Below the pieces are notes generated by a model, which did no database searches, was not told where the DNA came from, and worked only from the letters and a program-made list of their open reading frames with translations. From Deltaproteobacteria bacterium (GTDB taxonomy: Bacteria > Desulfobacterota > Syntrophia > Syntrophales > Smithellaceae), in contig JAAYDW010000011.1 of assembly GCA_012729055.1 (NCBI GenBank), positions 4,402 through 68,401 of the forward strand: a stretch of 64,000 bases of DNA, in the 5' to 3' direction. Positions 2,063 to 20,591 of this stretch are shown here, one piece after another. The translations under genes and the position numbers were made by a program. The number at the start of each line of letters is the position of its first letter. The first letter of the stretch is position 1.

Positions 2063-2110
2063 ATCTGTTCCATAGTACAATTCAACCTTATGCATATTTG
2101 GAGATCATTA

Positions 2111-6010: not shown

Positions 6011-6066
6011 ATATTTCTAGTGGATATTGAAACGTTCTGCTTTGATAAAGTATTCTGGTCAATACG

Positions 6067-6208: not shown

Positions 6209-6330
6209 ATCCAAGGGAATCCCAAACCATTGAGTGGAAAGAATCCTGGCGCGATGAATATATTCGCTGGGTCTGCGGTTTTGCCAATGCGCAGGGCGGC
6301 AAGTTGATTATCGGCAAAAACGATAAGGGC
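6189..6330 (+). repeat. 142-bp direct repeat, copy 1 (RBS plus 5' end of the AlbA_2 gene)
   Basis: Matches 7384-7525 with 8 mismatches by manual comparison. Confidence 0.95.
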
Positions 6331-6375
6331 CAAATATCGGGTGCATACCCGAAGCAAAGTGAGGTCAATCAATGA
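6205..6375 (+). pseudogene. 56-aa truncated copy of the AlbA_2 gene N-terminus, coupled to fic
   Basis: MNPRESQTIEWKESWRDEYIRWVCGFANAQGGKLIIGKNDKG then a divergent tail. TGA 6373-6375 overlaps the fic ATG at 6372. Confidence 0.8.
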
Positions 6376-7403
6376 CTAAAAAATACACGCCGCCTTATCA
6401 CATCACGCCTGCGATTCTGCACTTAGTGGTGCAGATCGGCGAGGCTCTGGGAAAGCTCCATGTGCCAGACGACAGCACGAATGTTCCTCTCCTGCGGCGA
6501 GGCAACCGCATTAAGACCATTCAGGCTTCCCTGGCGATTGAAGGCAACACGCTTACCCTGGAGCAAGTTACGGCTTTGCTTGACGGCAAACGGGTTCTGG
6601 GAATGCCCCGTGAGGTTCAGGAAGTGCGCAACGCCTTTGCAGCGTACGAGAAACTACCGGACTGGTCGCCGTACTCCCGCTCCGATCTTCTTGCCGCACA
6701 TGCCTTGCTGATGGCCGGGCTCGTTGATGAAAGCGGGCATTTCCGTTCAGGCGGGGTCGGTATCTGCCAGGGTAAAAAGGTTGTGCATGTCGCACCACCT
6801 GCCGACCGGGTGGCCGCGCTGGTTGACGATCTGCTTTTCTGGCTAAAAAACACCGACGAGCATCCCCTTGTTGCCAGTTGCATCTTTCATTATGAATTCG
6901 AGTTCATCCATCCCTTTCAGGACGGCAACGGCAGGCTGGGCCGCCTCTGGCAGACACTTGTTCTTAGTCAATGGCGACCGGTTTTTGCCATGCTCCCGGT
7001 GGAAAGCATCATTCGCGACCGGCAACAAGAATACTATAAAGCCCTTAGCACAGCAGACCGGGCGGTAGATGCAACTGCTTTTATTGAATTTATGATGAGC
7101 GCCATTTTGCAGGCCATTGAAGAAGCAACCTTCACAAGCGACCAAGGAATAGACCATCAAAGCGACCAAGTAATCCGCTTGCTCCAAGCGCTCAGGAAAG
7201 CAAGACGGAGCGCTTCCGATGTTATGACCGAACTGGGGCTGGCCCACAGGCCGACGTTCCGGAAAAACTATCTGCATCCTGCCCTTGAGGCAGGGTTGAT
7301 TGAGATGATCCATCCCGAGACACCCCGCGCCCGAAACCAGAAGTATCGCCTGACGGCTCGCGGTGAAAAACTGCTGAAAACTGAGGAGTCATCCGCCTTA
7401 TGA
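6372..7403 (+). CDS. Fic family protein with C-terminal HTH
   Basis: Canonical HPFQDGNGRLGR motif, SLAIEGN motif, C-terminal wHTH ending NQKYRLT. Confidence 0.93.
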   Translation: MTKKYTPPYHITPAILHLVVQIGEALGKLHVPDDSTNVPLLRRGNRIKTIQASLAIEGNTLTLEQVTALLDGKRVLGMPREVQEVRNAFAAYEKLPDWSPYSRSDLLAAHALLMAGLVDESGHFRSGGVGICQGKKVVHVAPPADRVAALVDDLLFWLKNTDEHPLVASCIFHYEFEFIHPFQDGNGRLGRLWQTLVLSQWRPVFAMLPVESIIRDRQQEYYKALSTADRAVDATAFIEFMMSAILQAIEEATFTSDQGIDHQSDQVIRLLQALRKARRSASDVMTELGLAHRPTFRKNYLHPALEAGLIEMIHPETPRARNQKYRLTARGEKLLKTEESSAL

Positions 7404-7525
7404 ATCCCAAGGAATCCCAAAACATTGAGTGGAAAGAAGCCTGGCGCGATGAATATATCCGCTGGGTCTGCGGTTTTGCCAATGCCCAGGGCGGCAAGTT
7501 GATTATCGGTAAAAACGATAAAGGC
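7384..7525 (+). repeat. 142-bp direct repeat, copy 2
   Basis: Partner of 6189-6330. The two copies bracket fic. Confidence 0.95.
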
Positions 7526-8743
7526 GTGATCCTGGGCGTAGCCAATGCCAAGAAGCTTCTGGAAGACATCCCCAACAAGATCAAGGATATTCTGGGAATT
7601 ATCGTTGATGTCAATCTGCGGGTTGAAAAGGGCAAAGACCTGATTGAAATTGTTGTGGAACCCTACCCTTATCCTGTAAGCTACAAGGGGGAGTATTATT
7701 ATCGCAGCGGCAGCACCAAACAGGAATTAAAAGGGGCAGCCCTCGATAAGTTTTTGCTGGAAAAGCAGGGCAAGCGCTGGGATGCGGTGCCGGTGCCCCG
7801 GGTGGCCATGGCCGATTTGAAGAAAGACTCTTTTGATTTGTTTCGCGCGAAAGCGGCCAAAAGCGGGCGCGTGAGCGATGAGGTTTTGTCGGAAGGCAAT
7901 GCTTCGCTGATTGAGAATTTGAATCTGAAGGAAGGCCATTATCTCAAACGCGCCGCCATTTTACTTTTCCACCAGAATCCGGAAAAGTGGGTGGTCGGCT
8001 CGTATATCAAAATCGGTTATTTTCGCACGGATGCCGATCTGCTTTATCAGGATGAAATTCATGGCAGTCTGTTTGTCCAGGCTGAAAAAACTTTGGACCT
8101 ATTGCTCACCAAATATCTGAAAGCGTCTATCAGTTATGAAGGGATCAGCCGTGTGGAGCGGTTTCCTTTTCCGAAGGCCGCTTTGCGGGAAGCCTTGTTA
8201 AATGCGATTGTGCACAAGGACTATGGCGGCGGCGCGCCCATCCAGATCAGCGTGTATGAAGATAAAATCTATTTTTGGAATGACGGCCAGTTGCCCGAAA
8301 ACTGGACGGTGGCGCAGTTGTTGGCCAAGCATGCCTCCAAGCCTTTTAATCCTCTCATTGCCAATGCCTTCTTCCGGGCGGGAATGATTGAATCCTGGGG
8401 GCGGGGCATCGAAAAAATTCGACAGGAATGCAAAGCAGCCGGCATGCCGTTGCCGGAATATCGAACGGATGCGTCGGGGTTGATGGTAAAATTCAAGGCA
8501 GGTATCCTGAAGAAAGAAAAAACGCCGGTGAAAACGCCGGTGAAAACGCCGGTGAAAACGCCGCAGAAGATCGTTGCCTTGCTGGAGAACGACGGCAGTC
8601 TTTCAATTGTGGAACTGGCAAAACAAATCGGAAGATCTGCCAGCGCTGTTGAACGGGCCATACGAAAATTGCGGGAAGCAGGAACGATTGAACATATCGG
8701 CCCGGCCAAAGGTGGTCATTGGGTGGTCAAGGAGAAACAATGA
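7400..8743 (+). CDS. AlbA_2 (Schlafen-like) + HATPase_c_4 + HTH protein (often annotated RecG-like or transcriptional regulator)
   Basis: ESQNIEWK...FANAQGGKLIIG, ALREALLNAIVHKDY, NPLIANAF...IESWGRGI, C-terminal HTH ending IGPAKGGHWVV. Confidence 0.9.
   Translation: MNPKESQNIEWKEAWRDEYIRWVCGFANAQGGKLIIGKNDKGVILGVANAKKLLEDIPNKIKDILGIIVDVNLRVEKGKDLIEIVVEPYPYPVSYKGEYYYRSGSTKQELKGAALDKFLLEKQGKRWDAVPVPRVAMADLKKDSFDLFRAKAAKSGRVSDEVLSEGNASLIENLNLKEGHYLKRAAILLFHQNPEKWVVGSYIKIGYFRTDADLLYQDEIHGSLFVQAEKTLDLLLTKYLKASISYEGISRVERFPFPKAALREALLNAIVHKDYGGGAPIQISVYEDKIYFWNDGQLPENWTVAQLLAKHASKPFNPLIANAFFRAGMIESWGRGIEKIRQECKAAGMPLPEYRTDASGLMVKFKAGILKKEKTPVKTPVKTPVKTPQKIVALLENDGSLSIVELAKQIGRSASAVERAIRKLREAGTIEHIGPAKGGHWVVKEKQ
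8519..8563 (+). repeat. In-frame 12-bp tandem repeat (AAAACGCCGGTG)x3.75 encoding KTPV repeats
   Basis: Read directly from the sequence. Confidence 0.95.
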
Positions 8744-11700
8744 CGTCAGATAAAACAGCCCAACAACTCCTGCTCGACGAGCGCAACCATGTCGAGAAAC
8801 CCTTCCTCGACCAACTTCACGGTCTAGGATGGGAGATTATCGATCTCGACGGCAAGCAGCACCCAAGCGACAGCTACCGTCAGAGCTTTACCGAGGTGGT
8901 GATGCTGCCGGTGCTGAGGGCGCAGCTTAAGGTCATTAATGACTGGCTGGAAGACGATCAGGTCGAAGAAGTGGTCAAGTCGCTTACGGCAAGCTTTCCC
9001 GGAACCGGTCTGATTTCGAACAACCGCCACGTCTTTACCCTTTTATTGGAAAACACCAGTGTAAGTGTTAACCGCCGCACGGGCGAGAAAAGCCCGACGG
9101 TGCGTTTTGTGGATTTTACGCATCGCGACAATAACCGCTTTATTGCGGTCTGCCAGCTCAAGGTGCGCATCCTGGGCACGGAGCATCATATCGTGCCGGA
9201 CATTGTCCTTTTCTTAAACGGCCTGCCGGTGGTGGTGGTGGAATGCAAATCCCCCAAGGTTAAAGACGCTATCCCGGAAGCCATTGATCAGATCTTGCGC
9301 TACAGCGAACAGCGTGGGGCCAGGGGCGAGGGCAGCGTGCCTCTTTTCTTCTATAATCAGTTTGTCATTGCCACCTGCCGTCAGCAGGCCAAGTTCGGCA
9401 CGATTACCACGCACAGTGAAAAATACTTCTACCGCTGGGCCGATCCTTACCCCCGCACGGTCGATGATCTGGAACACGGTGAAAGCGGCCCCAACGATCA
9501 GCAGCGACTGGTGGCCGGAATGCTCGACCGTGATAATCTGCTGGATCTCATTCGCACCTTTACGCTCTTTTCGACCAACGACAAGGGTGAGACGATCAAG
9601 ATTGTGGGGCGTTACCAGCAGTTTCGCGCCGTCAAGCTGGCAGTCAAGCGACTGCTGATGGGCCAAAGCCCCCGCGAACGGAGCGGTATTATCTGGCATA
9701 CGCAGGGCTCGGGCAAATCGCTGACCATGATGTTTATGGTTCGGGAGATGTATCGACATGCCCGGCTCTCGCATTGGAAGGTGGTCTTTGTCACCGACCG
9801 TACACAACTGGAAGGTCAGTTGACGGAAACCAGCCAGAGTATCGGCTTTACGGTCAAAGTGGCTGACAGCATTAAGACACTCAAAGAACTGTTGCGCTCC
9901 GATTCCTCCGATCTGGTCATGGCCATGATCCACAAATTTCGCGAAGCGGATTTGACGGAAACCTTCCCGGAATTGAACGCCAGCCCCTGCATTTTGGTGA
10001 TGACCGACGAAGCGCACCGGTCACAGTATGCCATGCTGGGTGCGAACCTTGATCGCGGCATCCCCAACGCCGCCCGCATCGGCTACACAGGAACGCCGAT
10101 CGACAAAACGGAGCGCGTCTTCGGCGACTACATCGACAAATACACGATGCGCCAGTCCATTGATGATGGTGTGACGCTGGAGATCGTCTATGAAGGACGC
10201 ACGCATAACGCTGAAGTGGCAGACCAAAAGGCGATGGATACGGCTTTTGCGGATGTCTTCAGCGATTATAACCTTCAGCAGCGTATGGATATTCTGGGTT
10301 ACGGTTCCCGTGAGGCCTACCTGGAATCCAAGACTACCATTGAGGCCAAGGCCAAAGACATGATCGAGCATTATCTGACGCATGTATTCCCCAATGGCTA
10401 TAAGGCGCAGGTGGTGGCCACGTCCCGCGAAGCAGCGGTGCGTTACAAGGGTTTTATTGATGATGCGCTGACGGCGGCCATTGCTGAATTGGAAAAGGCC
10501 AAATGCGGTCATTCCGGGCATGAACCGGAATCCAGGAATAATTCTAAAGAACCTCTGGATTCCCGCCTGCGCGGGAATGACAAGTCGTGGAACGTGCCGG
10601 CAATAGACTTCGAACAATTAAAAAAGCTGACGACGGACGTAATCATCTCCGGCAATCACAATGACTTGCCTCACCTTAAGGCCTATGCGGATGATTCCAA
10701 ACATGAAACCAGCATCAAGAGTTTCAAGATGGCTTTTGGGAACAAGGAAGAAGAAATCACCGGTGACATGGGCATTCTGATTGTCAACAATATGTTGCTG
10801 ACCGGCTTTGATGCGCCGGTTGAGCAGGTCATGTATCTGGATAAGGTTATTGTAGCCCACAATTTGCTTCAGGCCATTGCCCGCGTCAACCGCGTGGGCG
10901 GAGAAGGCAAGGATAAGGGCTTTGTGGTGGATTATGTGGGCATCGGCCACCACCTGAAAAAGGCTATTGATACTTATGATGAACGTGAACAGAAGGAAGT
11001 GATCGACACCCTGAGCTTCCCCGAGGAAGAGTTGCGGGAGCTGCAAGCGTCTCATGCGGCCATTCTGGACCTGCTTAAGAAACACGGACTCACAGACCTG
11101 ACGGATCATGATGCATTCTTTGATATCTTCTATGACGAAGATCTGCGTTTTGATTTCATGCTGGCCTTTAAACAGTTGACCCGATGCCTGAACCTCGTAT
11201 TCCCGGCAAAAGAAGCGCTTGCCTACATGGCCGACTACCAGGCCCTGGCCGAAATCAACGTGCTGGCAGGAAAGCATTTCCGGGATGAACGCCTGAGCAT
11301 GAAAGGCATTCCCGCCAAGTTACGCGGGATTACCGACGCCTATCTGGAATCCAAGGGTATCGAGGTAAAAATCGAACCGATCTCTATCCTTGATGCGGAT
11401 TTTGAAAAGGAAGTTGACAAGCGAAGCCGGACCAAGACCAAGGCGGCGGAAGTGGAGCATGCCATTCGCCATCACCTGGATATTGAACTGGCTGATGATC
11501 CTGATCTTCAGGCGTCCTTCGCCGCCGCATTGGCTGCGATATTTGAAAAATTTCGCAACAACTGGAAAAAGATTTATGAGGAACTGGAGAAGCTGCGCGA
11601 ACGCATCATTAATGCCGGTAAAGAGCCGACCTATGGACTACACAGGAAGAAGCAGATGCCGTTCTTCCGCATGTTTGCCAGAGAAATATTCGGTGAAGGT

Positions 11701-12012
11701 GCGGCAGCTCAGCCTCAGGCCGTGCCAATTGCCGAGCCTGCCCCTGACTATGGCATGAATCACGAAGACAGGATCAGCCATTTGGTTGACCTGACGCAGA
11801 AAGTGTTTCTGATTGTCGAACGGGAATTGAAACTTACCGGGTTCTGGGAAAGCATTCCTGCCCGCAATAAATTAAAAGCTGATATTCAAGCCGCCTTGCT
11901 GGCTCCCGAATTCTCAGAGCTTCCTGGCATCGTAAAAAACAGAGCGCGCATTATTTCCCGGATCATGGAAATCGCTGAAAGCAAAAACGACATTATCCTT
12001 TACGCAGAGTGA
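8740..12012 (+). CDS. hsdR: Type I R-M restriction subunit
   Basis: PDIVLFLNGLPVVVVECK nuclease motif, IWHTQGSGKS Walker A, DEAHRSQ, MLLTGFDAP, LLQAIARVNR. ATG 8740 overlaps the upstream stop. Confidence 0.97.
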   Translation: MTSDKTAQQLLLDERNHVEKPFLDQLHGLGWEIIDLDGKQHPSDSYRQSFTEVVMLPVLRAQLKVINDWLEDDQVEEVVKSLTASFPGTGLISNNRHVFTLLLENTSVSVNRRTGEKSPTVRFVDFTHRDNNRFIAVCQLKVRILGTEHHIVPDIVLFLNGLPVVVVECKSPKVKDAIPEAIDQILRYSEQRGARGEGSVPLFFYNQFVIATCRQQAKFGTITTHSEKYFYRWADPYPRTVDDLEHGESGPNDQQRLVAGMLDRDNLLDLIRTFTLFSTNDKGETIKIVGRYQQFRAVKLAVKRLLMGQSPRERSGIIWHTQGSGKSLTMMFMVREMYRHARLSHWKVVFVTDRTQLEGQLTETSQSIGFTVKVADSIKTLKELLRSDSSDLVMAMIHKFREADLTETFPELNASPCILVMTDEAHRSQYAMLGANLDRGIPNAARIGYTGTPIDKTERVFGDYIDKYTMRQSIDDGVTLEIVYEGRTHNAEVADQKAMDTAFADVFSDYNLQQRMDILGYGSREAYLESKTTIEAKAKDMIEHYLTHVFPNGYKAQVVATSREAAVRYKGFIDDALTAAIAELEKAKCGHSGHEPESRNNSKEPLDSRLRGNDKSWNVPAIDFEQLKKLTTDVIISGNHNDLPHLKAYADDSKHETSIKSFKMAFGNKEEEITGDMGILIVNNMLLTGFDAPVEQVMYLDKVIVAHNLLQAIARVNRVGGEGKDKGFVVDYVGIGHHLKKAIDTYDEREQKEVIDTLSFPEEELRELQASHAAILDLLKKHGLTDLTDHDAFFDIFYDEDLRFDFMLAFKQLTRCLNLVFPAKEALAYMADYQALAEINVLAGKHFRDERLSMKGIPAKLRGITDAYLESKGIEVKIEPISILDADFEKEVDKRSRTKTKAAEVEHAIRHHLDIELADDPDLQASFAAALAAIFEKFRNNWKKIYEELEKLRERIINAGKEPTYGLHRKKQMPFFRMFAREIFGEGAAAQPQAVPIAEPAPDYGMNHEDRISHLVDLTQKVFLIVERELKLTGFWESIPARNKLKADIQAALLAPEFSELPGIVKNRARIISRIMEIAESKNDIILYAE
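10508..10581. repeat. Palindromic REP/RPE-like mini-element inserted in frame in hsdR
   Basis: GTCATTCC-GGGCATGAACC-GGAATCCAG ... CTGGATTCCCGCCTGCGCGGGAATGAC. The arms are inverted copies and each is a hairpin. Encodes GHSGHEPES...LDSRLRGND. Confidence 0.85.
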
Positions 12013-12016
12013 CAGG

Positions 12017-12700
12017 ATGGAGCTCTCCTACATCATTCAGAGATCAGCCAAACGACACAAATTGACGATATCCGTCGAACGGGATCGCCGCGTTGTGGTC
12101 CACGCACCGGAGAGAATGTCCGACGAAGATATCCGGCGTGTGGTTGAGTCAAAACGCGGGTGGATTTACGAAAAGACGGGCCATGCCCAGAAATATCAGG
12201 ATCTGCCTCATCCGCCGGGAAAGGAACTGGTCAGCGGCGAGTCGGTTCTCTATCTTGGCAGGCAATATCGCGTTGACATCGCAAAAAACGGTTCAACAGA
12301 AATTAAATTTAAACAGCGTTTCCTGATTCCGGCCATCAATACAGAAAAAAGAATGGAAGCTTTGCGTCAGTGGCACATCAGCCGCGCCGAAGAAAAAATT
12401 ATTCCGCGAACCAAACTCCATGCTCGCGCCCTCGGTGTGGATGTCGCCGCAATTCGTATTGTTGACAACCGTTATCGCTGGGGTTCTTGTACCATGAAGG
12501 GCCATGTGCATTTCAACTGGCGGCTGATCAAGGCCCCTATGTTTGTCATTGACTACGTTATCGTCCATGAACTCACTCATCTCATTGAGGCCAATCACAC
12601 ACCCAGGTTTTGGAACATAGTGCGGTCACAAACCTCGACAATGGAAAAAGCAAAAGCATGGTTGAAGGAATACGGGCAGTTGCTGGAACAGGCGCTTTAG
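12017..12700 (+). CDS. M48/SprT-like zinc metallopeptidase (YgjP/DUF45), typical downstream of hsdR
   Basis: RWGSC, FNWRL, IDYVIVHELTHL...NHTPRFW. Confidence 0.92.
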   Translation: MELSYIIQRSAKRHKLTISVERDRRVVVHAPERMSDEDIRRVVESKRGWIYEKTGHAQKYQDLPHPPGKELVSGESVLYLGRQYRVDIAKNGSTEIKFKQRFLIPAINTEKRMEALRQWHISRAEEKIIPRTKLHARALGVDVAAIRIVDNRYRWGSCTMKGHVHFNWRLIKAPMFVIDYVIVHELTHLIEANHTPRFWNIVRSQTSTMEKAKAWLKEYGQLLEQAL

Positions 12701-13043
12701 AAAGGGTAAGAAATAACAAAGCCTTTGGCCATTTCTAACCGCACGGAAAAACGCGATGAATTTATTGATCTTAAAAAAATTGCTTTTCAATTTGCAAGTT
12801 TAATGCAGATGACCTTTCCTCGCTTGAACAGGATTGCGTTACCGCCTGATCGCCCGATCTTTCCTCTTGACAATTGCCGCCCAAAACCGCAAACACCACT
12901 AGCTCAGGGGTCTTCCCGCTGGTCCGGCAGAAAGATTTCTTCCTCCGGTCGAAAGGACATGAAAAGGAAGTGCAGCAAAGTCTTCCCGGCCGGCCCAATC
13001 GACGGAAAGCGCATGTTGAGATATTACGGAAGGTGAACGGATT

Positions 13044-13814
13044 TTGAAAATTGCTTCTTTGGCGTCCGGCAGCAACGGCAACTGCTATTATCTGGAAGAA
13101 GGCGACGACGCCGTTTTGATCGACGCGGGCGTGAGCCGCAAACAGATTATCGAAAGGATGAACCGGCTCGGACTTTCTTTGTCCAAACTGCGGGGCGTAT
13201 TCATTTCCCACGAGCACAACGATCATATTCACGGCAGCGATGTCTTCGCCCGGAAACACGGGATGGAGATTTTCCTGACGCAAAAGACCTACGCGGCCTA
13301 CGGGCGAACCATCAACGGTGGATCGGTCAGCTTCTTTTCCCCGGGGCAAAAGGTGCAGGTCGGCAGCCTCTGCGTTCATCCTTTTCTGAAATCGCACGAC
13401 GCAGCCCAGCCGTGCAGTTTTTCCGTCTCTTCCGCCGACCGGAATGTGGCGGTGATGACGGACATCGGCATACACTGCGAAAACGTGATTGAATATCTGC
13501 GCCGCGCCGACGCCGTCTTTCTGGAATCCAACTACGACGAACAGATGCTGAAGACCGGGCCGTACCCGGCGTATATGAAAAGAAGGATCGCCTCCGATGT
13601 GGGCCACCTGTCCAATGTCCAGGCCGCCGCGCTTGCGCTTGCACATGCGTCCTCCCGCCTGAAACACGTCTTCTTGTCCCATCTTTCGGCAAACAACAAT
13701 ACGCCGGAGCTGGCGCTCAGGACGTTTATGGAGATGATCGGAAAAAGAAGCGATCTGAAGCCGGAGGTCCGGATCGCTTCCCGGGAAAAAGAAAGCAGTA
13801 TTGTCTGTCTGTAG
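13044..13814 (+). CDS. MBL-fold metallo-hydrolase (YycJ/WalJ-like)
   Basis: LASGSNGN, SHEHNDH, SHDA, LESNYD, GHLSN, HLS..NN. TTG start after GGAAGG. Confidence 0.9.
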   Translation: MKIASLASGSNGNCYYLEEGDDAVLIDAGVSRKQIIERMNRLGLSLSKLRGVFISHEHNDHIHGSDVFARKHGMEIFLTQKTYAAYGRTINGGSVSFFSPGQKVQVGSLCVHPFLKSHDAAQPCSFSVSSADRNVAVMTDIGIHCENVIEYLRRADAVFLESNYDEQMLKTGPYPAYMKRRIASDVGHLSNVQAAALALAHASSRLKHVFLSHLSANNNTPELALRTFMEMIGKRSDLKPEVRIASREKESSIVCL

Positions 13815-13879
13815 GGTATAGATTCAGAGGCCACAGTCACATCGCCACCCCGGCAAAACCGGGGGCAAGTTTATTCCTC

Positions 13880-13906
13880 CTGAATTCCCGCCTGCGCGGG
13901 AATGAC
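13880..13906. repeat. Intergenic copy of the same palindromic arm (CTGAATTCCCGCCTGCGCGGGAATGAC)
   Basis: One mismatch to 10555-10581. Confidence 0.9.
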
Positions 13907-14151
13907 GATTTTTAGCGCTGTCGTGAAACTGCGGATATCCCCCGCTGCTGCGCGTTTGGGTTTCTGATTCGCAACCTCTTCCGCGTCCCGGTTGGCGCAC
14001 TGCATACGATGCCCTTCTGAGGGCCTGCTCGTGTCAGGCGTTATTCTCTTGCCGGACAGATATTCATTTTCTGGCGCCCGTCGGCGCGTCCCCCGGAAAG
14101 ACAACGGAAAAGTTTACCATGTCCGTCAGAAATGCTTTTTCGGGATGACTA

Positions 14152-15045
14152 TTATCCCGGCTGCAACCCCACCAGTCGGCCGATGCGTTCGGTCACCTGG
14201 GCATTCAATCCAAGCTTGGCGGCGAAATCTTCCAGGTAACTTTTTTCCGCCGGCGTATCCACCTCGATCGCCAGCAGAGACGCGACATACATCTGGGCCG
14301 CCAGTTCCGCCTGCCCCCGGGCGAGCGCCACAAGGGTTTCCGTTTCCATCGGCCCGCGAAGCTGTTCCTGCAAATAGCGGCGTCCATCTTCGTCCAGTCC
14401 GATTTCTTCGACTTTCCCCGTCAGGCGGTCGATTTCGTTTTGGTCAATCCGGCCATCGGCTTTGATGGCGTTGATCATCGCGCGCAAAATCAGTTCTGAG
14501 TTCTGCTCCAGCTCCTTGACTTCGGCATCGGTCTGCGGCTCCAGCAATCCCACCGGAACCTGCGTTTTGGCCTGGCCGCTGCCTTTGAGCGCATTAAAGG
14601 CCAGGGCCCCGAGCAGCGCCACAAGCCCTCCGCCCACGGCGCCGCCCAATGATTTTTTGCCGCCGCCCATAAGCGAACCGATCAGCGCCCCCAAGCTTCC
14701 TATGGCCAGATTTTTATTGCCGCCGACGGCTTTCCCCGCATCGCCCAGAAGACCGGAAAGCAAATCTCCGATGCTCCCCGCACCACCCGCGGCGCCGCCG
14801 GATTGCCCGCCGCGCAACGCGCCGGAGAGCATCTCGCCGATGCTGCCGCCGCCGCTTTTTCCCCCGCCCGGAACACCGGACAACAGATCGCCTGCGGCGC
14901 CGCCGGACGGTCCGGATGAGCGTCCCATCATTGCGGAAAGACTGTCCAGCACATTTCCTCCGCCCAGTGAATTTTTGAGCCGGTCACCGGATGACGGTGA
15001 CAAGCCCGACTGTACCACGGCTCCCAAAAGCTCGCTGATGTTCAT
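14152..15045 (-). CDS. DUF533/YebE (TerB-like) protein with Gly-rich N-terminus
   Basis: LILRAMINAIKADGRID..E, MYVASLLAIEVDT..E..YL; repeated GDLLSG/GEMLSG segments. Confidence 0.85.
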   Translation of the reverse strand: MNISELLGAVVQSGLSPSSGDRLKNSLGGGNVLDSLSAMMGRSSGPSGGAAGDLLSGVPGGGKSGGGSIGEMLSGALRGGQSGGAAGGAGSIGDLLSGLLGDAGKAVGGNKNLAIGSLGALIGSLMGGGKKSLGGAVGGGLVALLGALAFNALKGSGQAKTQVPVGLLEPQTDAEVKELEQNSELILRAMINAIKADGRIDQNEIDRLTGKVEEIGLDEDGRRYLQEQLRGPMETETLVALARGQAELAAQMYVASLLAIEVDTPAEKSYLEDFAAKLGLNAQVTERIGRLVGLQPG

Positions 15046-15181: not shown

Positions 15182-15237
15182 CCTAGTCAAGATATCGTCA
15201 AGATATCCTTGACTAGGCAGGGGGGCTTTCTTATACT
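15182..15237 (+). promoter_or_regulatory. Sigma70-like promoter TTGACT-N17-TATACT overlapped by an inverted repeat
   Basis: -35 at 15209-15214, -10 at 15232-15237. Perfect inverted repeat CCTAGTCAAG (15182-15191) / CTTGACTAGG (15208-15217). Confidence 0.7.
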
Positions 15238-15264: not shown

Positions 15265-16020
15265 ATGCCTGAGATCATCGCGATTCATTCCTTTCGGGGC
15301 GGAACGGGAAAATCCAACACAGCGGCCAACCTGGCCTGCCTGCTGGCCCGGCAGGGCCGGCGCGTCGGCGTCGTGGATACGGACATCCAGTCTCCCGGCA
15401 TTCACGTGCTGTTCAACCTCGATCCGAAAGACGCGGCCCATACCTTAAACGATTTCCTCTGGGGCAAATGCGACATCGGACGCGCGGTTTACGACGTGTC
15501 CCGGATTCTCGGACCGGAAGAGCGGGGAAAGCTCTTTCTCATCCCCTCGAGCATCCGCACGGGCGACATTGCCCGGGTCCTGCATTACGGCTACGACATC
15601 AATCTGCTCAAGGAAGGGTATCAGCAGGCCATTGAGCAGTTCGCGCTCGATTATCTTTTCATCGACACCCATCCGGGCTTAAACGAGGAGACGCTGATGT
15701 CGATCGCCATCGCCGACACCCTCCTCATTCTCCTGCGTCCCGACCAGCAGGATTACCAGGGAACGGCCGTAACAGTCGAGGTTTCCCGCGCGCTCGAGGT
15801 TCCCCGGATGTTTCTGATCGTCAACAAAGCGCCCGCCTCGCTTTGCGGCGACGCGCTGGCCGCTAAAGTCGCAGCAACCTACAATTGCGACGTGGCGGGG
15901 GTCCTGCCGCACGCCGACGAGATGATGGAGTTGGGAAGCTCCGGCATTTTTTGTCTCACGCACCCGGATTCGTCGCTTGGCCGGGCCATAGACGGCATTC
16001 TCCGGAGAATCGAGACATGA
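15265..16020 (+). CDS. MinD/ParA family ATPase
   Basis: HSFRGGTGKSN deviant Walker A, VDTD, IDTHPG, IVNK. Confidence 0.9.
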   Translation: MPEIIAIHSFRGGTGKSNTAANLACLLARQGRRVGVVDTDIQSPGIHVLFNLDPKDAAHTLNDFLWGKCDIGRAVYDVSRILGPEERGKLFLIPSSIRTGDIARVLHYGYDINLLKEGYQQAIEQFALDYLFIDTHPGLNEETLMSIAIADTLLILLRPDQQDYQGTAVTVEVSRALEVPRMFLIVNKAPASLCGDALAAKVAATYNCDVAGVLPHADEMMELGSSGIFCLTHPDSSLGRAIDGILRRIET

Positions 16021-17045
16021 ATCCAGACGCAAAGAAAATCCTCCTTGCCGGGTTGATCTTTGCCGTCGTCTACGGGCTCTTGAACAGCCTTTCCAATATT
16101 TTCCTGCTGCCGTCCGCGCCGATCATCTCCTTTCGGCCGCAGATCGCGCTGCCGATGGCCGTGGGCATTCTGGTCCACCCGCTGGCCGGCTTCATCACGG
16201 GTTTTGCGGGCAATGTGGTCGGCGACGCCATCAGCGGCTTCGGCGCTTTCAAATTCTGGAACTGGCATATCGCCAACGGTCTCATGGGCCTCATTCCCGG
16301 GCTCGCCGTTTACCGGCACATCCGCCGCATCGACACCGTCCGCGCGTTCGGCATTCTGCAGGGAAGCATCGTTTTCGCCTGCGCCGCGGGCGTCGGAACG
16401 GCGGTCGTCCTGGATTGGCTCTTTTTGCATTTCATGACGTTTCCCGCTTCCCTCCCCTCCTGGATTCTGCCGGCGTTTCTCACCGACGCGGTAAACGGCT
16501 TCATCCTGGTTCCGGCAATTCTTCTGATTGCGGGAAGAATCGTCCTGACCCTTGAGACGCGCACGATTTTAATGATCACCGGCCTTTTGATCGCGAGCAT
16601 TCTCGCCACCGCCGGTTCGATCACCTGGGCGGTCCTCGATGATCTGGTTTCGCACGGGGCCATGGTGCAAAACTTTTACATTGCCGCCATCGTCTCCGTC
16701 GGCCTGCTGGTGATCGGATTTGTCGCTGCTGTCGTTTTTGTCCGAAAGATGACCGCGCCGCTGGCGGCGCTGGGACGCGCGGCCGAAGCCGTGGAAAAAG
16801 GCCGCTACGATCTGCCCGAACTGGCGGCCGTATCGGCGCGCGCAGACGAACTGGGACGGCTGGCCCGCATTTTCGAGCAAATGGCCGGAAAAGTCGGGGA
16901 AAGAGAAAACAGCCTTCAGCGCCAGGTCGCAGAACTGCAAATTACAATCGACCGCGAAAAACAGGCCCGCGACGTTTCCGACATCGTGGATACGGATTAT
17001 TTCCGCGCGTTGAAGGAAAAGGCCCGGAAATTCCGGGGAGCATGA
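16017..17045 (+). CDS. Membrane sensor: ECF S-component-like domain + 2 TM + HAMP + coiled-coil tail, no kinase or cyclase
   Basis: ISFRPQIALP...GFITGFAGNVVGDAISG...WNWHIANGLMG (S-component-like); PLAAL..AAEAVEKGRY...RADELGRLARIFEQM (HAMP). ATG 16017 overlaps the ATPase stop. Confidence 0.75.
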   Translation: MNPDAKKILLAGLIFAVVYGLLNSLSNIFLLPSAPIISFRPQIALPMAVGILVHPLAGFITGFAGNVVGDAISGFGAFKFWNWHIANGLMGLIPGLAVYRHIRRIDTVRAFGILQGSIVFACAAGVGTAVVLDWLFLHFMTFPASLPSWILPAFLTDAVNGFILVPAILLIAGRIVLTLETRTILMITGLLIASILATAGSITWAVLDDLVSHGAMVQNFYIAAIVSVGLLVIGFVAAVVFVRKMTAPLAALGRAAEAVEKGRYDLPELAAVSARADELGRLARIFEQMAGKVGERENSLQRQVAELQITIDREKQARDVSDIVDTDYFRALKEKARKFRGA

Positions 17046-17055: not shown

Positions 17056-18042
17056 ATGGACGTTATGGCAGCGGCGGTTTTCAACGGCAAACTCACCTAC
17101 GTCGAGGATTATCCTGTGCCGCAAATCAGGCCCGGCTGGGCGAAAATTCGCGTCAGGCTCGCCGGCATCTGCAAAACGGACATGGAAATTCTGAAAGGGT
17201 ACAAGGGATTTGAAGGCGTGCTGGGGCATGAGTTTGTCGGCCACGTGGATCAGTGCGAAGAGGCTTCCTGGATCGGAAGGAGAGTGGTGGGCGAAATCAA
17301 CGCCGCCTGCGGGCAGTGCGACTGGTGCCGCTGCGATCTGGGGCGTCACTGCCCGAACCGCTCGACCCTCGGCATCTCCCGCCTCGACGGCTGCATGGCC
17401 GACTACTGCGTCCTGCCCGTCGCGAACCTCCTTGCGGTCCCGGATCATCTCTCGGACGAACGCGCGGTTCTTGTCGAGCCCTTGTCTGCGGCCTGCGAGA
17501 TTCTGGAGCAGCTGCGGCCCGCGGGCAACGAGCGGGCGGTGGTCCTCGGCGACGGGCGTTTAGGCATTTTGTGCGCCTGGGTGCTTGCCACGGTCCTTTC
17601 GGATGTTACGGTCGTGGGGCATCATCCGGAAAAGCTGGAGATCCTCCGGTGGCGAAATATCCGGACCGCTCTTAAAGAAAAGAATGTTATGCCCGGCGCG
17701 GACATCGTCGTGGAGGCCACCGGGTCGGGCGCGGGAATTGTCGCAGCCATGGCGCTGTGCCGGCCGCGTGGAACGATTGTGATGAAATCCACCGTCGCCG
17801 TTTCCGGCGACGTCAATCTGGCGCCGATCGTTGTGAACGAACAGACAGTTCTGGGATCACGCTGCGGACGCTTTGCCGACGGGCTCAGCATCATGCGCGA
17901 GTTTCCGGACATGCCGCTCGACCGGCTTTTCACCGCCCGCTATCCGCTGGCGCGCGTTCGGGAGGCCTTTGTCCGGGCGACGCAAAGCGACGCCCTCAAA
18001 GTGCTGCTGGATATTTCACCCTCAGACGAAGAGAAAGAATAA
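17056..18042 (+). CDS. Zn-dependent alcohol dehydrogenase (MDR family)
   Basis: GICKTD, GHEFVG, CxxCxxC-x7-C structural Zn site, GDGRLG, EATG. Confidence 0.92.
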   Translation: MDVMAAAVFNGKLTYVEDYPVPQIRPGWAKIRVRLAGICKTDMEILKGYKGFEGVLGHEFVGHVDQCEEASWIGRRVVGEINAACGQCDWCRCDLGRHCPNRSTLGISRLDGCMADYCVLPVANLLAVPDHLSDERAVLVEPLSAACEILEQLRPAGNERAVVLGDGRLGILCAWVLATVLSDVTVVGHHPEKLEILRWRNIRTALKEKNVMPGADIVVEATGSGAGIVAAMALCRPRGTIVMKSTVAVSGDVNLAPIVVNEQTVLGSRCGRFADGLSIMREFPDMPLDRLFTARYPLARVREAFVRATQSDALKVLLDISPSDEEKE

Positions 18043-20591
18043 TGATGAAACGCGACGTTGGCGACATGCTTACGACCCTGATCCGGACTCAGGCCGACCG
18101 GGAAGCGCGGGAAACAACGGCCGGCGCATTCGAGGAACTGGCGACGCTCGGCGCGGCGCCGCTTCGGCAGAGCGACCGGCACATCGCCCTCGATCTTTCC
18201 CGGATCCGCGTTTTCCGCAACCTGCATACGTTTGTTTCGCTTCTGGCGGAGGAGGTCATCGAACAGTGCGCCTTCGGCGCCGCCGATATCATGGTGCGCC
18301 GCAAAGTGGATCCCCGCCTGACGCCGGAACTGGCCGCCGCCGGTCTGGACTGGGTGACGATTTATGTGCGGCTCGACGCGGCCGAAGGGCTGCCCTTCAA
18401 TCACCGGAGTTTCGGCTTGCGCCTGCAGATGATTTTCCGGGCGCTCCAGACCGAACGGTGGGGCGGCGCGCTCTTTCCCGGCTACTTCGGCCTGCAATCG
18501 CCCGAGGCCGCGGCGCCGCCCGCTCTGCTGTTCCCGTTTCATCTCCACGACGCTGAGGATCCGGGCGGTCATTACTATCTGGTGGAGCACAGCCGGCCGG
18601 GCCGTTTTCTGCGCATCACCATCGAAGACGCGGACCATTCGCGCCTGCAGCTCAAACACATTCCCCATCGCGTGGTCGATCAGCCGCTCAGACGCTCTTT
18701 TTTTGCCGACATTTTTTCGACGGCCGAAAAAATCCATCAGGGCATATTGCACGACGCCCTGAACCACCGAGCCGAGCATGTGGAAACGGCGGCGCAGCTG
18801 CCGGACTTTTTCGCTTATCTGAAGCAAACCGGCCTGCCCCGCGTGCAGCAAATCCGCTTCACCTGGCCCACCGACGACCGGCAGATGATTTTTCTGGAAA
18901 AAAGCGACGCCGCCGCCCTGAGCGAATCGCTCGGCATGCTGGTCAAAGAGATTCAACTCCTCGAAGACCCGGCCGTTTTGCAGATGCTGGCGCAGGGGCA
19001 GACCGTCGAGATGATTTCCGGAGCGTTTCACATCTACTGCGACGTTTCCCGCTGGGGCGCCTGCCTCAACGTGAGTTTCGACGAAATCCGCGAGAAACAG
19101 GATCTGGCGGATTACCTGGCGCCGATGAAAGCGCTGGAAGCGGCGCTCGCGCGCCGGCCGCGGGCGCTGGCGGGCGTGAGGCTTTTCGTCATCCACCATG
19201 CGACCGCCGAAGTGCTCGGCCTGTTAAAAGCGTTTGCCGACGCCGGCTGCGAAACGCTTGCGACCTTTTTTGTCCAGTACGCGGGCATTGTGCCGGACGC
19301 CTATCTGGAAACTTTGATGAGCCTGCCTCCGGAAACGTTCCGCTTTTACGGCCTCCAGAAAATGGAATCGCGCCTGAAGCTGGGCGGCGCCTACCTGCTG
19401 TCGCGCCAGTTCACGCCGCTTGACGACGATTGTGCCGTCGATCAGGCGCTGGCGGACGAAGCTCCGGATTTCCTGGGCGCCATGCGCCTGGCGGCAGGAC
19501 ACTTTTTTTTGAAGGAAACCGCTTCGGCCCGCCTGGCGAACCGGCAGATGCTCCTGGTGGAAGACGGCGGTTACCTCGCGCCGCTTCTGAACCGCTTCTG
19601 CCTGGAAGGCAAAACCATCGGAGACGTTTTCGCAGCCTTCCGCCTGCCTTTGACCGCGGACGATGGCGCCATGCTGTTTTCGGACTGGCTCGCCCCGGTC
19701 TTTGCCGGTAGCGTAGAACACACGAAAAACGGCTACGATTACGTAAACGAGGTGGTTCAGGCTCTCGGAAAGCTCCGGTTTCCGGCGGCCAGCATCGCCG
19801 TCTCGGATTTAAAAAGAGGCCCGGAGGCGCAAGCCTGCGCCATCTCGATTCTCAACGCCGTAGAAAGTATTCTTCACCGTCTGGGCCTGATCTTTTCCCG
19901 CCGCAACGTCGTCCTTTTGGGCTCGGCCGGCGCCATCGGCGGCTTTCTCAAGGCGGAGCTTAGCCGCCGCCTGGCCGAAGGCAGCCTCTGCGGCGTGGAC
20001 ATCGCCGCCGGAAACGGCGCTGAGGGCGGCATTCGGGAAGTCCGCACCCTCGACGATCTGGAAAGCGGCGTTTTGAGAAACGCCGACATGTTCATCGGCG
20101 TGACCGGCCAATCTCTTTTGCAGCGCAGCCATCTGGAGGAAATTCTCCTTCACGGCCGGCAGCCGGCCGTATTTTTAATCAGCGGCTCGACCAAGACGGT
20201 GGAGTTTGCCGACGCGCAAAATTACCTGCAATCTCTGCGCGACGCTCCGGATGCGCGCGTGGGCGACCGGGCCGCAAGCGTCGACTTCGTACCCTTGCGG
20301 GATTTGCAGACCGGCATCCTGCAAGGGTACGAAGTCCGGCTGCGTTTTACCGATCGTCCCTCCGGCGACAAGATCATCTATCTTTTAGGCGGAGGCATGC
20401 CGCTCAACTTCCTGTACTACGGCATCCCCCGGGAAATCATAGACGAGGTCATGGCCCAGCTCTTTTGCGTGTCCTGCGGCCTGGTCCGGCGCCGGCGCGC
20501 AGGCGATCCGCTGCCGCCTGCGCTCCTGGCGGTGGACCGCGAAATCGATTCCGACGCCGATTGGCTCGTCGGCGAAGGAAAAATTTTCTAA
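18042..20591 (+). CDS. Uncharacterised ~849-aa protein with C-terminal adenosylhomocysteinase (AhcY)-like NAD-binding fold
   Basis: Motifs colinear with AhcY: HHAT, VEDGGY, VEHTKNG, SDLK, GSAGAIG, DMFIGVTG, IYLLGGGMPLNF. Start overlaps the ADH stop (TAATG). Confidence 0.6.
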   Translation: MMKRDVGDMLTTLIRTQADREARETTAGAFEELATLGAAPLRQSDRHIALDLSRIRVFRNLHTFVSLLAEEVIEQCAFGAADIMVRRKVDPRLTPELAAAGLDWVTIYVRLDAAEGLPFNHRSFGLRLQMIFRALQTERWGGALFPGYFGLQSPEAAAPPALLFPFHLHDAEDPGGHYYLVEHSRPGRFLRITIEDADHSRLQLKHIPHRVVDQPLRRSFFADIFSTAEKIHQGILHDALNHRAEHVETAAQLPDFFAYLKQTGLPRVQQIRFTWPTDDRQMIFLEKSDAAALSESLGMLVKEIQLLEDPAVLQMLAQGQTVEMISGAFHIYCDVSRWGACLNVSFDEIREKQDLADYLAPMKALEAALARRPRALAGVRLFVIHHATAEVLGLLKAFADAGCETLATFFVQYAGIVPDAYLETLMSLPPETFRFYGLQKMESRLKLGGAYLLSRQFTPLDDDCAVDQALADEAPDFLGAMRLAAGHFFLKETASARLANRQMLLVEDGGYLAPLLNRFCLEGKTIGDVFAAFRLPLTADDGAMLFSDWLAPVFAGSVEHTKNGYDYVNEVVQALGKLRFPAASIAVSDLKRGPEAQACAISILNAVESILHRLGLIFSRRNVVLLGSAGAIGGFLKAELSRRLAEGSLCGVDIAAGNGAEGGIREVRTLDDLESGVLRNADMFIGVTGQSLLQRSHLEEILLHGRQPAVFLISGSTKTVEFADAQNYLQSLRDAPDARVGDRAASVDFVPLRDLQTGILQGYEVRLRFTDRPSGDKIIYLLGGGMPLNFLYYGIPREIIDEVMAQLFCVSCGLVRRRRAGDPLPPALLAVDREIDSDADWLVGEGKIF

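Follow-up and report, generated by a model that had tools for sequence, protein, structure and literature searches.

The locus examined here raises the question of how a membrane sensor that lacks kinase, cyclase and MCP domains and ends about 50 residues after its HAMP domain might convey a signal. The window, meaning the whole stretch of 64,000 nucleotides that was analysed, holds the gene for this protein in an ATGA-coupled pair with the gene for a MinD/ParA-type ATPase (Table 1). An earlier note on this DNA, made from the sequence alone, had proposed a signal-transduction system whose output is control of the MinD-like ATPase. Conservation, co-occurrence and a docking model lend support to this proposal. 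We consider it likely that the pair forms a sensor-to-ATPase signalling unit, in which the sensor output is a 48-residue docking module predicted to bind a dedicated MinD-like ATPase.

Table 1. Features of the locus, with positions counted from the first base of the window.
Feature	Position	Strand	Basis or remark
Operator-like element	15182..15217	.	10-nt perfect inverted repeat CCTAGTCAAG / CTTGACTAGG
Promoter-like site TTGACT-17-TATACT	15209..15237	+	28 nt before ATPase start; consensus match only
MinD/ParA-type P-loop ATPase, 251 aa	15265..16020	+	Distinct clade, Arg at signature-Lys position
Deviant Walker A HSFRGGTGKS	15286..15315	+	R11 in place of signature Lys
Sensor, 342 aa	16017..17045	+	S-component-like membrane domain, two further membrane helices, HAMP, tail
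ECF-S-component-like domain, residues 5-169	16029..16523	+	Pfam PF07155 (ECF-ribofla_trS)
HAMP domain, residues 241-292	16737..16892	+	Pfam PF00672
C-terminal tail module, 48 aa, residues 294-341	16896..17039	+	Profile matches, models
Zn-dependent alcohol-dehydrogenase-like (ADH-like) gene, 328 aa	17056..18042	+	Starts 10 nt past sensor stop
849-aa protein gene	18042..20591	+	Overlaps ADH-like stop by one base

Domain composition of the sensor and its partner ATPase

Both of the coupled genes described in the earlier note were found where it had placed them, with the start of the sensor gene overlapping the stop of the ATPase gene in the four bases ATGA (16017-16020). The sensor carries both the domain match and the six-helix membrane core looked for in an ECF S component: PF07155 is matched with 46.8 bits against a cut-off of 26.7 (E 4.3e-12), and an AlphaFold2 model places helices of the S-like domain at residues 3-28, 41-52, 55-73, 81-100, 108-137 and 145-171. 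PF00672 is matched with 38.7 bits against a cut-off of 25 (E 1.3e-9) by a region that is modelled as helix-linker-helix and that follows the last membrane helix, as in a HAMP transducer. Beyond these two domains no Pfam match was obtained even at E<=1, and HisKA, HATPase_c, cyclase/GGDEF and MCP domains were absent; NCBIfam kinase models align to the HAMP region alone and score far under their cut-offs. Pfam thus confirms the architecture that the earlier note had read, and the tail that it quoted is indeed the C-terminus of the protein.

The same architecture, with no kinase domain, was found in 97 of 97 sensor relatives of 188-599 aa. When the tail profile was searched over proteins of 87-2000 aa, the ECF-S carriers among the best 120 matches listed were all short. 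A truncated histidine kinase, which the earlier note had named as the finding in relatives that would speak against its reading, is rejected on the absence of such Pfam domains together with the 97 kinase-less relatives in the size range searched, which leaves a longer kinase-bearing form improbable. ECF T or A genes were not found among the four operon genes. The use of an S-component fold as membrane input has a precedent in the 5TMR-type receptors, which resemble the present sensor in having a vitamin-transporter S-component fold as membrane sensor input; the paper on them deals with histidine kinases, and a search of its text by term gave neither HAMP nor MinD (PMC11109136).

The partner ATPase shows domain matches above the curated cut-offs of the MinD/ParA superfamily (AAA_31, 66.5 bits against 27; ParA, 63.6 against 27.1; CbiA, 54.9 against 25.4) and has its switch I and Walker B acidic residues (D38, D40 and D134), which are invariant in 25 clade members. 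The P-loop GKS is kept, but Arg takes the place of the signature Lys in KGGxxGK[ST]. This substitution had been pointed out in the earlier note and is confirmed by the Walker A motif and by HMMER alignments, in which R11 aligns with the signature Lys of archaeal MinD (1hyq) and FleN (5j1j). R11, G12-G15 and K16 are invariant across the 25 aligned members, whose mean column identity is 71%. Models for MinD proper score the protein below their cut-offs (TIGR01968, 52.9 bits against 212.9; TIGR01969, 80 against 201.75; PRK10818, 27 against 508), as does NF047398 for KGGVGR-motif variant AAA ATPases (74.2 bits against 90), the motif here being RGGTGKS.

Relatives of the ATPase in genome contigs number 576, and the best 80 of these are full-length at 55-89% identity and come from Syntrophales, Cyanobacteria, Chloroflexota, Bipolaricaulota and Sericytochromatia. 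Clustered at 90% identity, the wider family amounts to at least 8000 clusters, whose database names (often MinD, cobyrinic acid synthase or sugar reductase) are generic or plainly wrong. The PADLOC anti-phage models yielded only a partial P-loop match to the ATPase (residues 4-63) and no match to the other three operon proteins, and a reading of the locus as a defence system was therefore dropped.

The tail module and its pairing with the ATPase clade

In the AlphaFold2 model, the HAMP output helix runs on into the tail as a single helix (residues 278-324), which after a break at 325-326 is followed by a basic, amphipathic end helix (327-341) with the motif DYF..L..KA..FR. Conservation of the tail, on which the reading in the earlier note depended, is evident from 18 aligned relatives that keep it down to 31% identity, and from matches of its profile to 2337 protein clusters at E<=1e-3 (1037 at E<=1e-10) in a library of 1.84 billion proteins. 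The profile also gave 901 matches among 8000 scored candidates. For 136 of the 150 clusters listed among the 2337, the match ends no more than 30 residues from the C-terminus. No model in Pfam or NCBIfam covers the tail, and a comparison with solved structures gave no match at E<=10.

The modules that precede the tail include CHASE2, Cache+HAMP, Tll0287+HAMP, GAF, PAS, cNMP-binding, receiver, MASE1 and STAND. A recognised catalytic output is absent from 81 of the 82 tail carriers scanned, the remaining one having a kinase ATPase domain, and none of the 82 carries a cyclase, GGDEF or MCP domain. Many carriers are small soluble proteins in which a single receiver, cNMP-binding, GAF or PAS domain is followed by the tail, and in CHASE2 carriers the end-helix motif is repeated, with up to 8 matched stretches. 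Some tail-bearing fragments are labelled as generic coiled-coil by JGI. One gene for a cNMP-binding domain plus tail adjoins an adenylate cyclase gene.

Tail and ATPase were found together in 72 of 753 sampled genomes from three phyla, against 3 genomes with the tail alone and 4 with the ATPase alone. Among 301 genomes of the same phylum as the present one, the tail (at E<=1e-10) occurs in 4 and the ATPase in the same 4; the corresponding numbers are 37 and 40, with 36 shared, for 251 Cyanobacteria, and 33 and 32, with 32 shared, for 201 Chloroflexota. Because genomes within one phylum are kin, these counts overstate independence. Tails and clade ATPases are equal in number in each of six genomes (1/1, 2/2, 1/1, 2/2, 1/1 and 1/1), and one or two ATPases were also found with up to four tail proteins in Chloroflexota and seven in one cyanobacterium.

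Among the loci of the best 80 of the 576 ATPase relatives, 56 have a tail gene adjoining the ATPase gene on the same strand, downstream in 14 loci of the ECF-S type and upstream in the other 42. The sensors encoded there have CHASE2, dCache+HAMP, sCache+HAMP, Tll0287+HAMP or ECF-S+HAMP inputs. The other 24 loci have no tail gene; in 6 of them the sequence breaks off near the ATPase, and another two contain a CHASE2 protein without a significant tail match. Similarly, 19 of 52 ATPase matches in the cyanobacterial sample have no tail within 6 kb. The census and the loci together vindicate what the earlier note had suggested, that similar tails occur on other sensors beside this ATPase subfamily, and the co-occurrence that its reading called for is present both in genomes and in adjacent genes. 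The recurrence of this pairing on many sensor types and in several phyla points to an undescribed signalling route. No description of the pairing was found in a full-text literature search (subscription journals and supplements lay outside it).

Predicted docking and a possible signalling mechanism

The conserved tail appears to dock onto the dedicated MinD-like ATPase that is encoded alongside it. Complex modelling of the two, which the earlier note had put forward as a check, supports docking: with two ATPase copies, ATP, Mg and one tail, ipSAE values of 0.70, 0.68 and 0.70 were obtained against 0.00 for the best of three controls, scores that may owe something to MinD/ParA-peptide complexes of known structure which the model had learned. 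The partner pLDDT was at least 69, and the runs have at least 80% of contacts in common. In calibration, 116 of 157 solved complexes and 2 of 215 mismatched pairs attained the ipSAE mark used; these counts apply only roughly to the present run, which was unlike the calibration in using its own alignments and in including small molecules. Docking is modelled on the ATPase but not on the control protein, and contacts are made through tail positions I18, D19, V27, I30, F36, L39 and R47 with ATPase residues 139-149 and 159-180, which lie just after switch II and beside the dimer interface. The contacted ATPase residues are invariant across the clade and differ from those of archaeal MinD.

Several known systems resemble this arrangement in part. 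In MinD-MinE/MinC, a short helical peptide of a partner sets the ATP cycle of a deviant-Walker-A ATPase, and the modelled tail site corresponds by alignment to what we take to be the MinE/MinC-binding region of MinD. Archaeal MinD is the nearest solved structure to the ATPase by sequence. The ATPase nevertheless differs from MinD in its Arg for the signature Lys, in falling far under the cut-offs of the NCBIfam MinD models and, as judged from the alignment by eye, in having no visible C-terminal extension for a membrane-targeting helix, and its partner is a sensor protein rather than MinE. ParA-ParB and Soj-Spo0J also involve a partner that bears a basic peptide, and a small helix-turn-helix gene lies beside the present ATPase in some lineages, as ParB/ParG lies beside ParA. 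However, the best NCBIfam ParA model gives the ATPase only 56 bits against a cut-off of 180, and the third component here is a sensor with a tail.

In FleN/FlhG-FleQ and ParC/PpfA, a MinD-like ATPase has signalling or regulatory proteins as its partners, and FleN is the second-best solved relative of the ATPase. FleQ and the chemoreceptor-cluster partners have outputs of their own, namely an AAA+ activator and chemotaxis arrays, whereas here a common docking module would be the sole output of many unrelated sensors. In ATPases of the TadZ/CpaE type, a receiver-like input domain is fused to the MinD-like ATPase. In contrast, the inputs here are separate proteins that have a 48-aa docking tail in common.

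In the mechanism proposed here, the S-like domain may perceive a ligand or a membrane signal and thereby alter the HAMP output helix, which in turn would change the presentation of the two tails of a sensor dimer. The tails would dock on the ATPase surface just past switch II, and docking could set ATPase dimerisation or ATP turnover, as MinE and ParB peptides do for MinD and ParA. The ATP-bound ATPase would then be a switch that acts downstream, with the co-transcribed ADH-like and 849-aa genes as its candidate clients in this genome. A small winged-helix protein accompanies the ATPase in Chloroflexota and Nostocales, either from a neighbouring gene or through fusion to an ATPase paralogue, and in the lineages that bear it this suggests an output through DNA binding. 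A winged-helix profile found no match in four of five genomes searched, including the present one, and two weak matches in the fifth (E 0.002 and 0.006), and no such protein is among the ORFs of the window.

Since the same tail and the same ATPase clade serve many other sensors, the ATPase-sensor pair can be viewed as one member of a general system. More tentatively, dozens of input types (CHASE2, Cache, CHASE4, MASE1, Tll0287 and S-component membrane receptors, phosphorylated receivers, and cNMP, GAF, PAS and STAND domains) might converge through one 48-residue module on the Arg-type MinD-like ATPase, and from there on the winged-helix adaptor or other clients. Such a hub might constitute a general, unnamed branch of signal transduction parallel to the two-component and second-messenger pathways, a reading that we place somewhat short of probable. 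Many bacterial sensors are classed as output-less, among them proteins with CHASE2 alone, receivers extended by a short helix and proteins that end soon after a HAMP domain; if the tail is an ATPase docking site, more than 2000 protein clusters would gain a testable output, and a large, badly named ATPase family would gain a role. Control of ParA/MinD ATPases by partner peptides would, if this is true, extend from cell organisation to signal relay. The system was found in approximately one-seventh of the cyanobacterial and one-sixth of the Chloroflexota genomes sampled, and would therefore matter for how these groups sense their surroundings.

Alternative readings, accessory genes and upstream elements

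The docking and adjacency evidence fits equally well with a positioning role, in which the ATPase is a ParA-like motor, the tail is a cargo tag, and the sensors signal by another, unseen route. ParA/MinD relatives position receptor arrays through short partner peptides, ParC/PpfA doing so for chemoreceptor clusters, and the several end-motif copies in CHASE2 proteins are what multivalent cargo might carry. We regard this explanation as unlikely, because 81 of 82 tail carriers lack any further recognised catalytic output and many are one soluble domain plus the tail, so that no other route for a signal is left. The winged-helix protein beside the ATPase or fused to its paralogue in several lineages, and the adenylate cyclase next to a cNMP-binding tail gene, also argue against positioning.

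A second alternative concerns the genes that follow. The pair stands first in a compact unit of four genes (4-nt overlap, 10-nt gap, 1-nt overlap), which the earlier note had missed. Of the 14 loci of the ECF-S type, all 14 retain the 849-aa gene downstream and 13 retain the ADH-like gene, a Bipolaricaulota genome being among those that keep the enzyme-like genes. Both observations would suit a metabolic cassette in which the ATPase, as a SIMIBI-type factor, serves the assembly or maturation of the ADH-like and adenosylhomocysteinase-like proteins, and the S-like protein delivers or senses a cofactor or substrate; metal-centre assembly is the role of the MinD relatives CooC, HypB and Mrp. However, members of the same clade (55-60% identical) and the same tail occur with unrelated sensors in loci without these enzymes, and the accessory genes differ from cassette to cassette and are non-homologous, which makes this reading quite improbable. 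It could be true of the client here without conflict with signalling from sensor to ATPase. No Pfam family was found in the 849-aa protein, and the resemblance of its C-terminal half to the NAD-binding fold of adenosylhomocysteinase is a lead only. Equating it with the protein of approximately 890 aa in the Nostocales dCache cassette, or the ADH-like protein with DUF7005, was ruled out in each case by a lack of similarity.

That the tail is a mere coiled-coil or dimerisation extension, or belongs to a truncated histidine kinase, and that its place next to the ATPase is functionally meaningless, is hardly credible: a heptad-like first half that continues the HAMP helix and the JGI label fit this view, but the single profile match in the whole 3.36-Mb genome indicates that the tail is not a generic coiled coil, and the tail also follows non-HAMP modules, co-occurs strictly with the ATPase in three phyla, comes with no kinase in the 97 relatives, and is docked by the model to the ATPase but not to the control.

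Four metatranscriptome libraries contain short contigs that cover parts of the sensor gene, of the junction between the sensor and ADH-like genes and of the 849-aa gene, with five contigs at >=99% identity in one of them, although coverage is patchy and DNA carry-over is possible. Upstream of the ATPase, the promoter-like site has 10 of 12 matches, with 3 such sites found against 1.6 expected. The inverted repeat of the operator-like element encloses two tandem GTCAAGATATC copies, and its right arm overlaps the -35 hexamer. Among 104 loci the full palindrome is present in this genome only, the other 103 being without it. The AAGATATYC-TTGAC part of the element is kept upstream in 4 relatives, and TTGAC and TATAC/TATTC are aligned upstream in 5 of 5 relatives.

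The gene pair and its ATPase clade

Both open reading frames of the ATGA-coupled pair described in the earlier note are present and overlap as described there (see table). The first encodes a protein that scores above the Pfam cut-offs for AAA_31 (66.5 bits), ParA (63.6) and CbiA (54.9), which places it in the MinD/ParA/CbiA group; its scores with the NCBIfam MinD, ParA and KGGVGR-variant models all lie well under their cut-offs. The Walker A motif of this ATPase is HSFRGGTGKS. Its Arg (R11), noticed beforehand as a substitution, indeed aligns with the signature Lys of archaeal MinD (1hyq) and FleN (5j1j), both of solved structure. Across the dimer interface, this invariant Arg may take over the role of that Lys.

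At least 576 relatives of the ATPase were found by scanning one genome per species. The best 80 of these are 55-89% identical along their entire length, and derive from Syntrophales/Smithellaceae, Desulfobacteraceae-labelled MAGs, many Cyanobacteria, Chloroflexota, one Bipolaricaulota MAG and one Sericytochromatia MAG. Mean column identity among 25 aligned ATPases is 71%. Residues R11, G12-G15 and K16 are invariant or nearly so, as are the stretches DTDIQSPGIH, IDTHPG.N.ETL and RPD.Q..QGTAV, of which the last two are unlike archaeal MinD at the aligned positions. The ATPase is a member of a sharply defined and very conserved clade. The window's own genome encodes one such ATPase, and its sole other MinD-like match is 28% identical. 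The family as a whole numbers 8000 or more clusters at 90% identity with E ≤ 1e-40; in the source databases these go by generic names (MinD/ParA family protein) or by wrong ones. Members annotated as CDP-3,6-dideoxy-D-glycero-L-glycero-4-hexulose-4-reductase, cobyrinic acid a,c-diamide synthase or septum site-determining MinD probably carry propagated misnomers.

The second gene encodes a sensor in which Pfam detects an ECF-S-component domain (residues 5-169) and a HAMP domain (241-292), and no further domain even at E ≤ 1; NCBIfam kinase models match its HAMP region only. Pfam thus agrees with the proposed arrangement of an S-component-like domain, a HAMP and a tail of about 50 residues (the sensor's last 50 are those quoted in that note), lacking kinase, cyclase and MCP domains. 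A search of 5.8 billion proteins, restricted to lengths of 188-599 aa, yielded 97 relatives, nearly all of which are 340-370 aa long and share the sensor's two Pfam domains. None of these 97 carries a kinase, cyclase or MCP domain, and the absence of a kinase domain argues against a truncated histidine kinase.

Conservation of the tail had been set beforehand as a test. The 48-residue module (residues 294-341) is retained in 18 relatives with identities as low as 31%, with the pattern RE..L..QV.EL.I.ID..K....V..I..TDYF..L..KA..FR and with R296, E297, L300, L307, I323, F329, L332 and R340 invariant. An AlphaFold2 model of the sensor (mean pLDDT 80) predicts six helices in the S-like domain, two more membrane helices and the HAMP, whose second helix runs unbroken from 278 to 324; after a break at 325-326, a basic, amphipathic terminal helix spans 327-341. 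Neither Pfam nor NCBIfam holds a model for the tail, and the source databases have no specific name for tail proteins or for the ATPase.

Features of the locus and of related loci. Positions are those of the window unless preceded by a locus number (L).
Feature	Position	Remarks
Divergent upstream gene, Gly-rich protein with DUF533 domain	14152-15045 (-)	
Promoter-like site TTGACT-17-TATACT	28 nt before ATPase start	consensus match
MinD/ParA-type ATPase ORF	15265-16020	251 residues
Sensor	16017-17045	342 residues; start is the ATG of ATGA at 16017-16020
Zn-dependent dehydrogenase-like (ADH-like) gene	17056-18042	downstream in 13/14 ECF-S-type loci
849-aa protein gene, no Pfam family	18042-20591	downstream in 14/14 ECF-S-type loci
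Small winged-helix-like protein	L063:1154-1504, L061:4788-5135, L024:2470-2811, L028:3530-3823, L104:9385-9756, others	
ATPase paralogues with fused C-terminal winged-helix module	L079:625-1725, L060:3-1055	

Distribution of the tail and of the ATPase

The earlier note pointed to similar tails on other sensors beside this ATPase subfamily, and such tails are present. A tail profile was run against the open reading frames of the 80 best ATPase loci, and a same-strand tail gene adjoins the ATPase in 56 of them, downstream in the 14 loci with the window's sensor type (ECF-S-type) and upstream in the other 42. By Pfam, the tail-bearing neighbours are CHASE2 proteins without HAMP, or dCache, sCache, Tll0287-like (haem) or ECF-S domains each followed by HAMP. 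The CHASE2 proteins carry two to four copies of the end-helix motif DYF..LQ.KAK..R, separated by polar linkers. In six of the 24 loci without a tail neighbour, the sequence breaks off no more than about 520 nt before the ATPase; in two, the gene immediately upstream encodes a CHASE2 protein whose tail match is weak or absent; one has a dCache protein extending past the contig end; and 15 have unrelated neighbours.

A census with a 22-sequence tail alignment was conducted on two protein sets. A word-indexed set of 5.8 billion proteins (87-2000 aa) gave 901 matches at E ≤ 0.01 among 8000 scored candidates, including cNMP-binding and receiver proteins of about 250 aa, 654-aa 4HB/CHASE3-HAMP-GAF proteins and GAF proteins, all with the tail. 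An exhaustive search of 1.84 billion representatives gave 2337 tail clusters at E ≤ 1e-3 (1037 at E ≤ 1e-10). By our count, 136 of the 150 clusters listed have their best tail match ending no more than 30 residues from the C-terminus; the exceptions include CHASE2 proteins with repeated units.

Pfam was used to scan the 82 listed carriers of at least 187 aa. HAMP is present in 45, and inputs include CHASE2, sCache/dCache (some with PG_binding or WD40), CHASE4, MASE1, Tll0287 and ECF-S, as well as GAF, PAS, cNMP-binding, receiver and nSTAND1 NTPase domains; six have no Pfam match. Cyclase, GGDEF and MCP domains were found in none of the 82 by Pfam, and one carrier is a complete hybrid histidine kinase with the tail after its last receiver. 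The tail is therefore the sole candidate output in 81 of the 82. Among individual proteins, the tail follows an nSTAND1 NTPase in P0220 (558 aa) and the last receiver of a hybrid kinase in P0245 (962 aa).

Co-occurrence of the tail with the ATPase clade, as the earlier note anticipated, holds across 753 pooled genomes: 72 carry both, three the tail only, four the ATPase only and 674 neither. In the window's own phylum (301 genomes), the tail at E ≤ 1e-10 and the ATPase occur in the same four genomes (G000, the window's own, and G245, G301 and G113), adjacent in all four; an additional weak tail match (E 4.9e-5) lies in a 1239-aa frame of genome G203, without the ATPase. The cyanobacterial sample (the phylum of G001, which holds the Microcoleus locus L081; 251 genomes) has 37 genomes with the tail, 40 with the ATPase and 36 with both. 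Its single tail-only genome has the tail at a contig edge, and one of its four ATPase-only genomes is a borderline match at 38% identity. For the Chloroflexota sample (the phylum of G005, which holds the Dehalococcoidales locus L061; 201 genomes), the numbers are 33, 32 and 32, with one tail-only and no ATPase-only genome. Co-occurrence thus recurs in three phyla and is patchy in each; because genomes within phyla are kin rather than independent, these counts are given without a P value.

Adjacency is common, but not a rule. For the 52 ATPase matches in the cyanobacterial sample, a tail lies within 2 kb in 22, at 2-6 kb in 11, at 6-50 kb in three and beyond 50 kb in eight, and eight have none on the contig. 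Tail and ATPase counts are equal in six whole genomes (1/1 in the window's own, then 2/2, 1/1, 2/2, 1/1 and 1/1). Chloroflexota genomes have up to four tails per one or two ATPases, and in one cyanobacterium seven tails accompany five ATPase matches. Since some genomes hold more tails than ATPases, several sensors can share one ATPase.

Cassettes and the promoter-like region

The common core is a tail-bearing sensor plus the ATPase, and the remainder differs by cassette. The window's cassette consists of four closely spaced genes: those for the ATPase and the sensor overlap by 4 nt, 10 nt separate the sensor gene from the ADH-like gene, and the latter overlaps the 849-aa gene by 1 nt. Loci with the same downstream genes include Bipolaricaulota and Desulfobacteraceae-labelled genomes. 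The ESM Atlas offers no more than a lead on the 849-aa protein: its C-terminal half is similar to the NAD-binding fold of adenosylhomocysteinase (query TM 0.41-0.46), and its closest full-length clusters there are unnamed. A Nostocales cassette (loci L098 and L100) consists of a dCache-HAMP-tail protein, a protein of about 880 aa without a Pfam family, the ATPase and then DUF7005; its accessory genes have no similarity to those of the window. At L098 this cassette is flanked by an AraC-type regulator and a cNMP-binding protein. Another cyanobacterial locus, L099 (G322:C1:2063000-2073000), carries a tandem of two PAS-PAS-tail/ATPase pairs, accompanied by STAS and HATPase-like (DUF6272) genes. 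Its genome is the one with seven tail and five ATPase matches.

A small protein of about 100-120 aa directly adjoins the ATPase in Chloroflexota, the Sericytochromatia MAG and Nostocales CHASE2 loci. Its winged-helix matches (MarR_2, TrmB, HTH_24) are weak yet consistent, reaching at best 8 of 12 members. The family has a conserved C-terminal motif, ..K....L..NIW..L, and no Pfam family of its own. Of five genomes tried, the window's own and three others gave no match to it. Both ATPase paralogues to which the same winged-helix module is fused adjoin a normal clade ATPase; the L079 copy has a degenerate Walker A that has lost GK[ST], and is therefore probably a pseudo-ATPase. Chloroflexota locus L104 (G622:C9:40500-58000) carries, in order, a cNMP-binding-tail protein, the ATPase and the winged-helix gene, with an adenylate cyclase alongside and a second ATPase/winged-helix pair 5 kb off. 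An ECF sigma factor, a PrsW protease and a HAMP-GAF-tail gene are also present there.

Upstream of the window's ATPase, a perfect 10-nt inverted repeat and a tandem 11-mer overlap the -35 of the promoter-like site; all of these lie in 15182-15237. In alignment, four relatives share both hexamers, together with AAGATATYC just upstream of the -35. Metatranscriptome libraries contain short contigs that map to parts of the operon, a weak hint of its transcription. G+C content is 0.45-0.53 in positions 1-14000 of the window and about 0.52-0.63 in 14001-64000. The low-G+C part holds a long open reading frame (8719-12012), by eye resembling the R subunit of a type I restriction enzyme, and then one of 227 aa.

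Predicted docking and possible modes of action

Structure prediction of the tail with the ATPase had been proposed as a check. When two ATPase copies, ATP, Mg and one tail were modelled together, the tail docked with ipSAE values of 0.70, 0.68 and 0.70, versus 0.00 in all three control runs, of which two used unrelated peptides and one put an unrelated protein in the place of the ATPase. Partner pLDDT is at least 69, and at least 80% of contacts are common to the runs. Of 157 solved complexes 116 reach the pass mark, as do 2 of 215 mismatched pairs; this calibration is only a rough guide here because our own alignments were used and small molecules were included.

Confident contacts involve tail positions 14-47, among them the conserved I18, D19, V27, I30, F36, L39 and R47 (sensor I311, D312, V320, I323, F329, L332 and R340). 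The ATPase is contacted at 111-116, 139-149, 159-180 and 193-205 on one copy and at 54-55 on the other, in clade-invariant stretches after switch II and beside the dimer interface. The modelled site aligns with the region of MinD that binds MinE and MinC, and the model's pass may partly reflect its knowledge of such complexes. These predictions support binding of the tail to the ATPase.

We propose that the HAMP (elsewhere a receiver, GAF, PAS or cNMP domain) would alter presentation of the tail, that this change would set ATPase dimerisation or ATP turnover, and that the ATP-bound ATPase would act on a client. The main rival, that the ATPase positions the sensors instead of relaying their signal, fits the docking equally well; we consider it unlikely, since a relay is favoured by the small soluble tail carriers without another output, by the winged-helix neighbours and by the adenylate cyclase found next to a cNMP-binding-tail gene. 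That the ATPase matures the two downstream enzymes in this genome, a cassette-specific role, seems to us improbable, and would be compatible with signalling from sensor to ATPase. The data given above contradict three further readings, namely chance adjacency, a mere coiled coil and, among relatives of 188-599 aa, truncation of a kinase.

Control of ParA/MinD ATPases by partner peptides is already well known. In the main texts of open-access papers, we found no paper joining CHASE2, HAMP or other sensors to a MinD/ParA-like ATPase via a common tail. The S-component fold was shown in 5TMR receptors in 2024 (PMC11109136), and a term search of that paper's text returned neither HAMP nor MinD. A bolder reading, that relay from sensor to ATPase constitutes a general branch of signalling, is one that we hold tentatively, at slightly less than an even chance.
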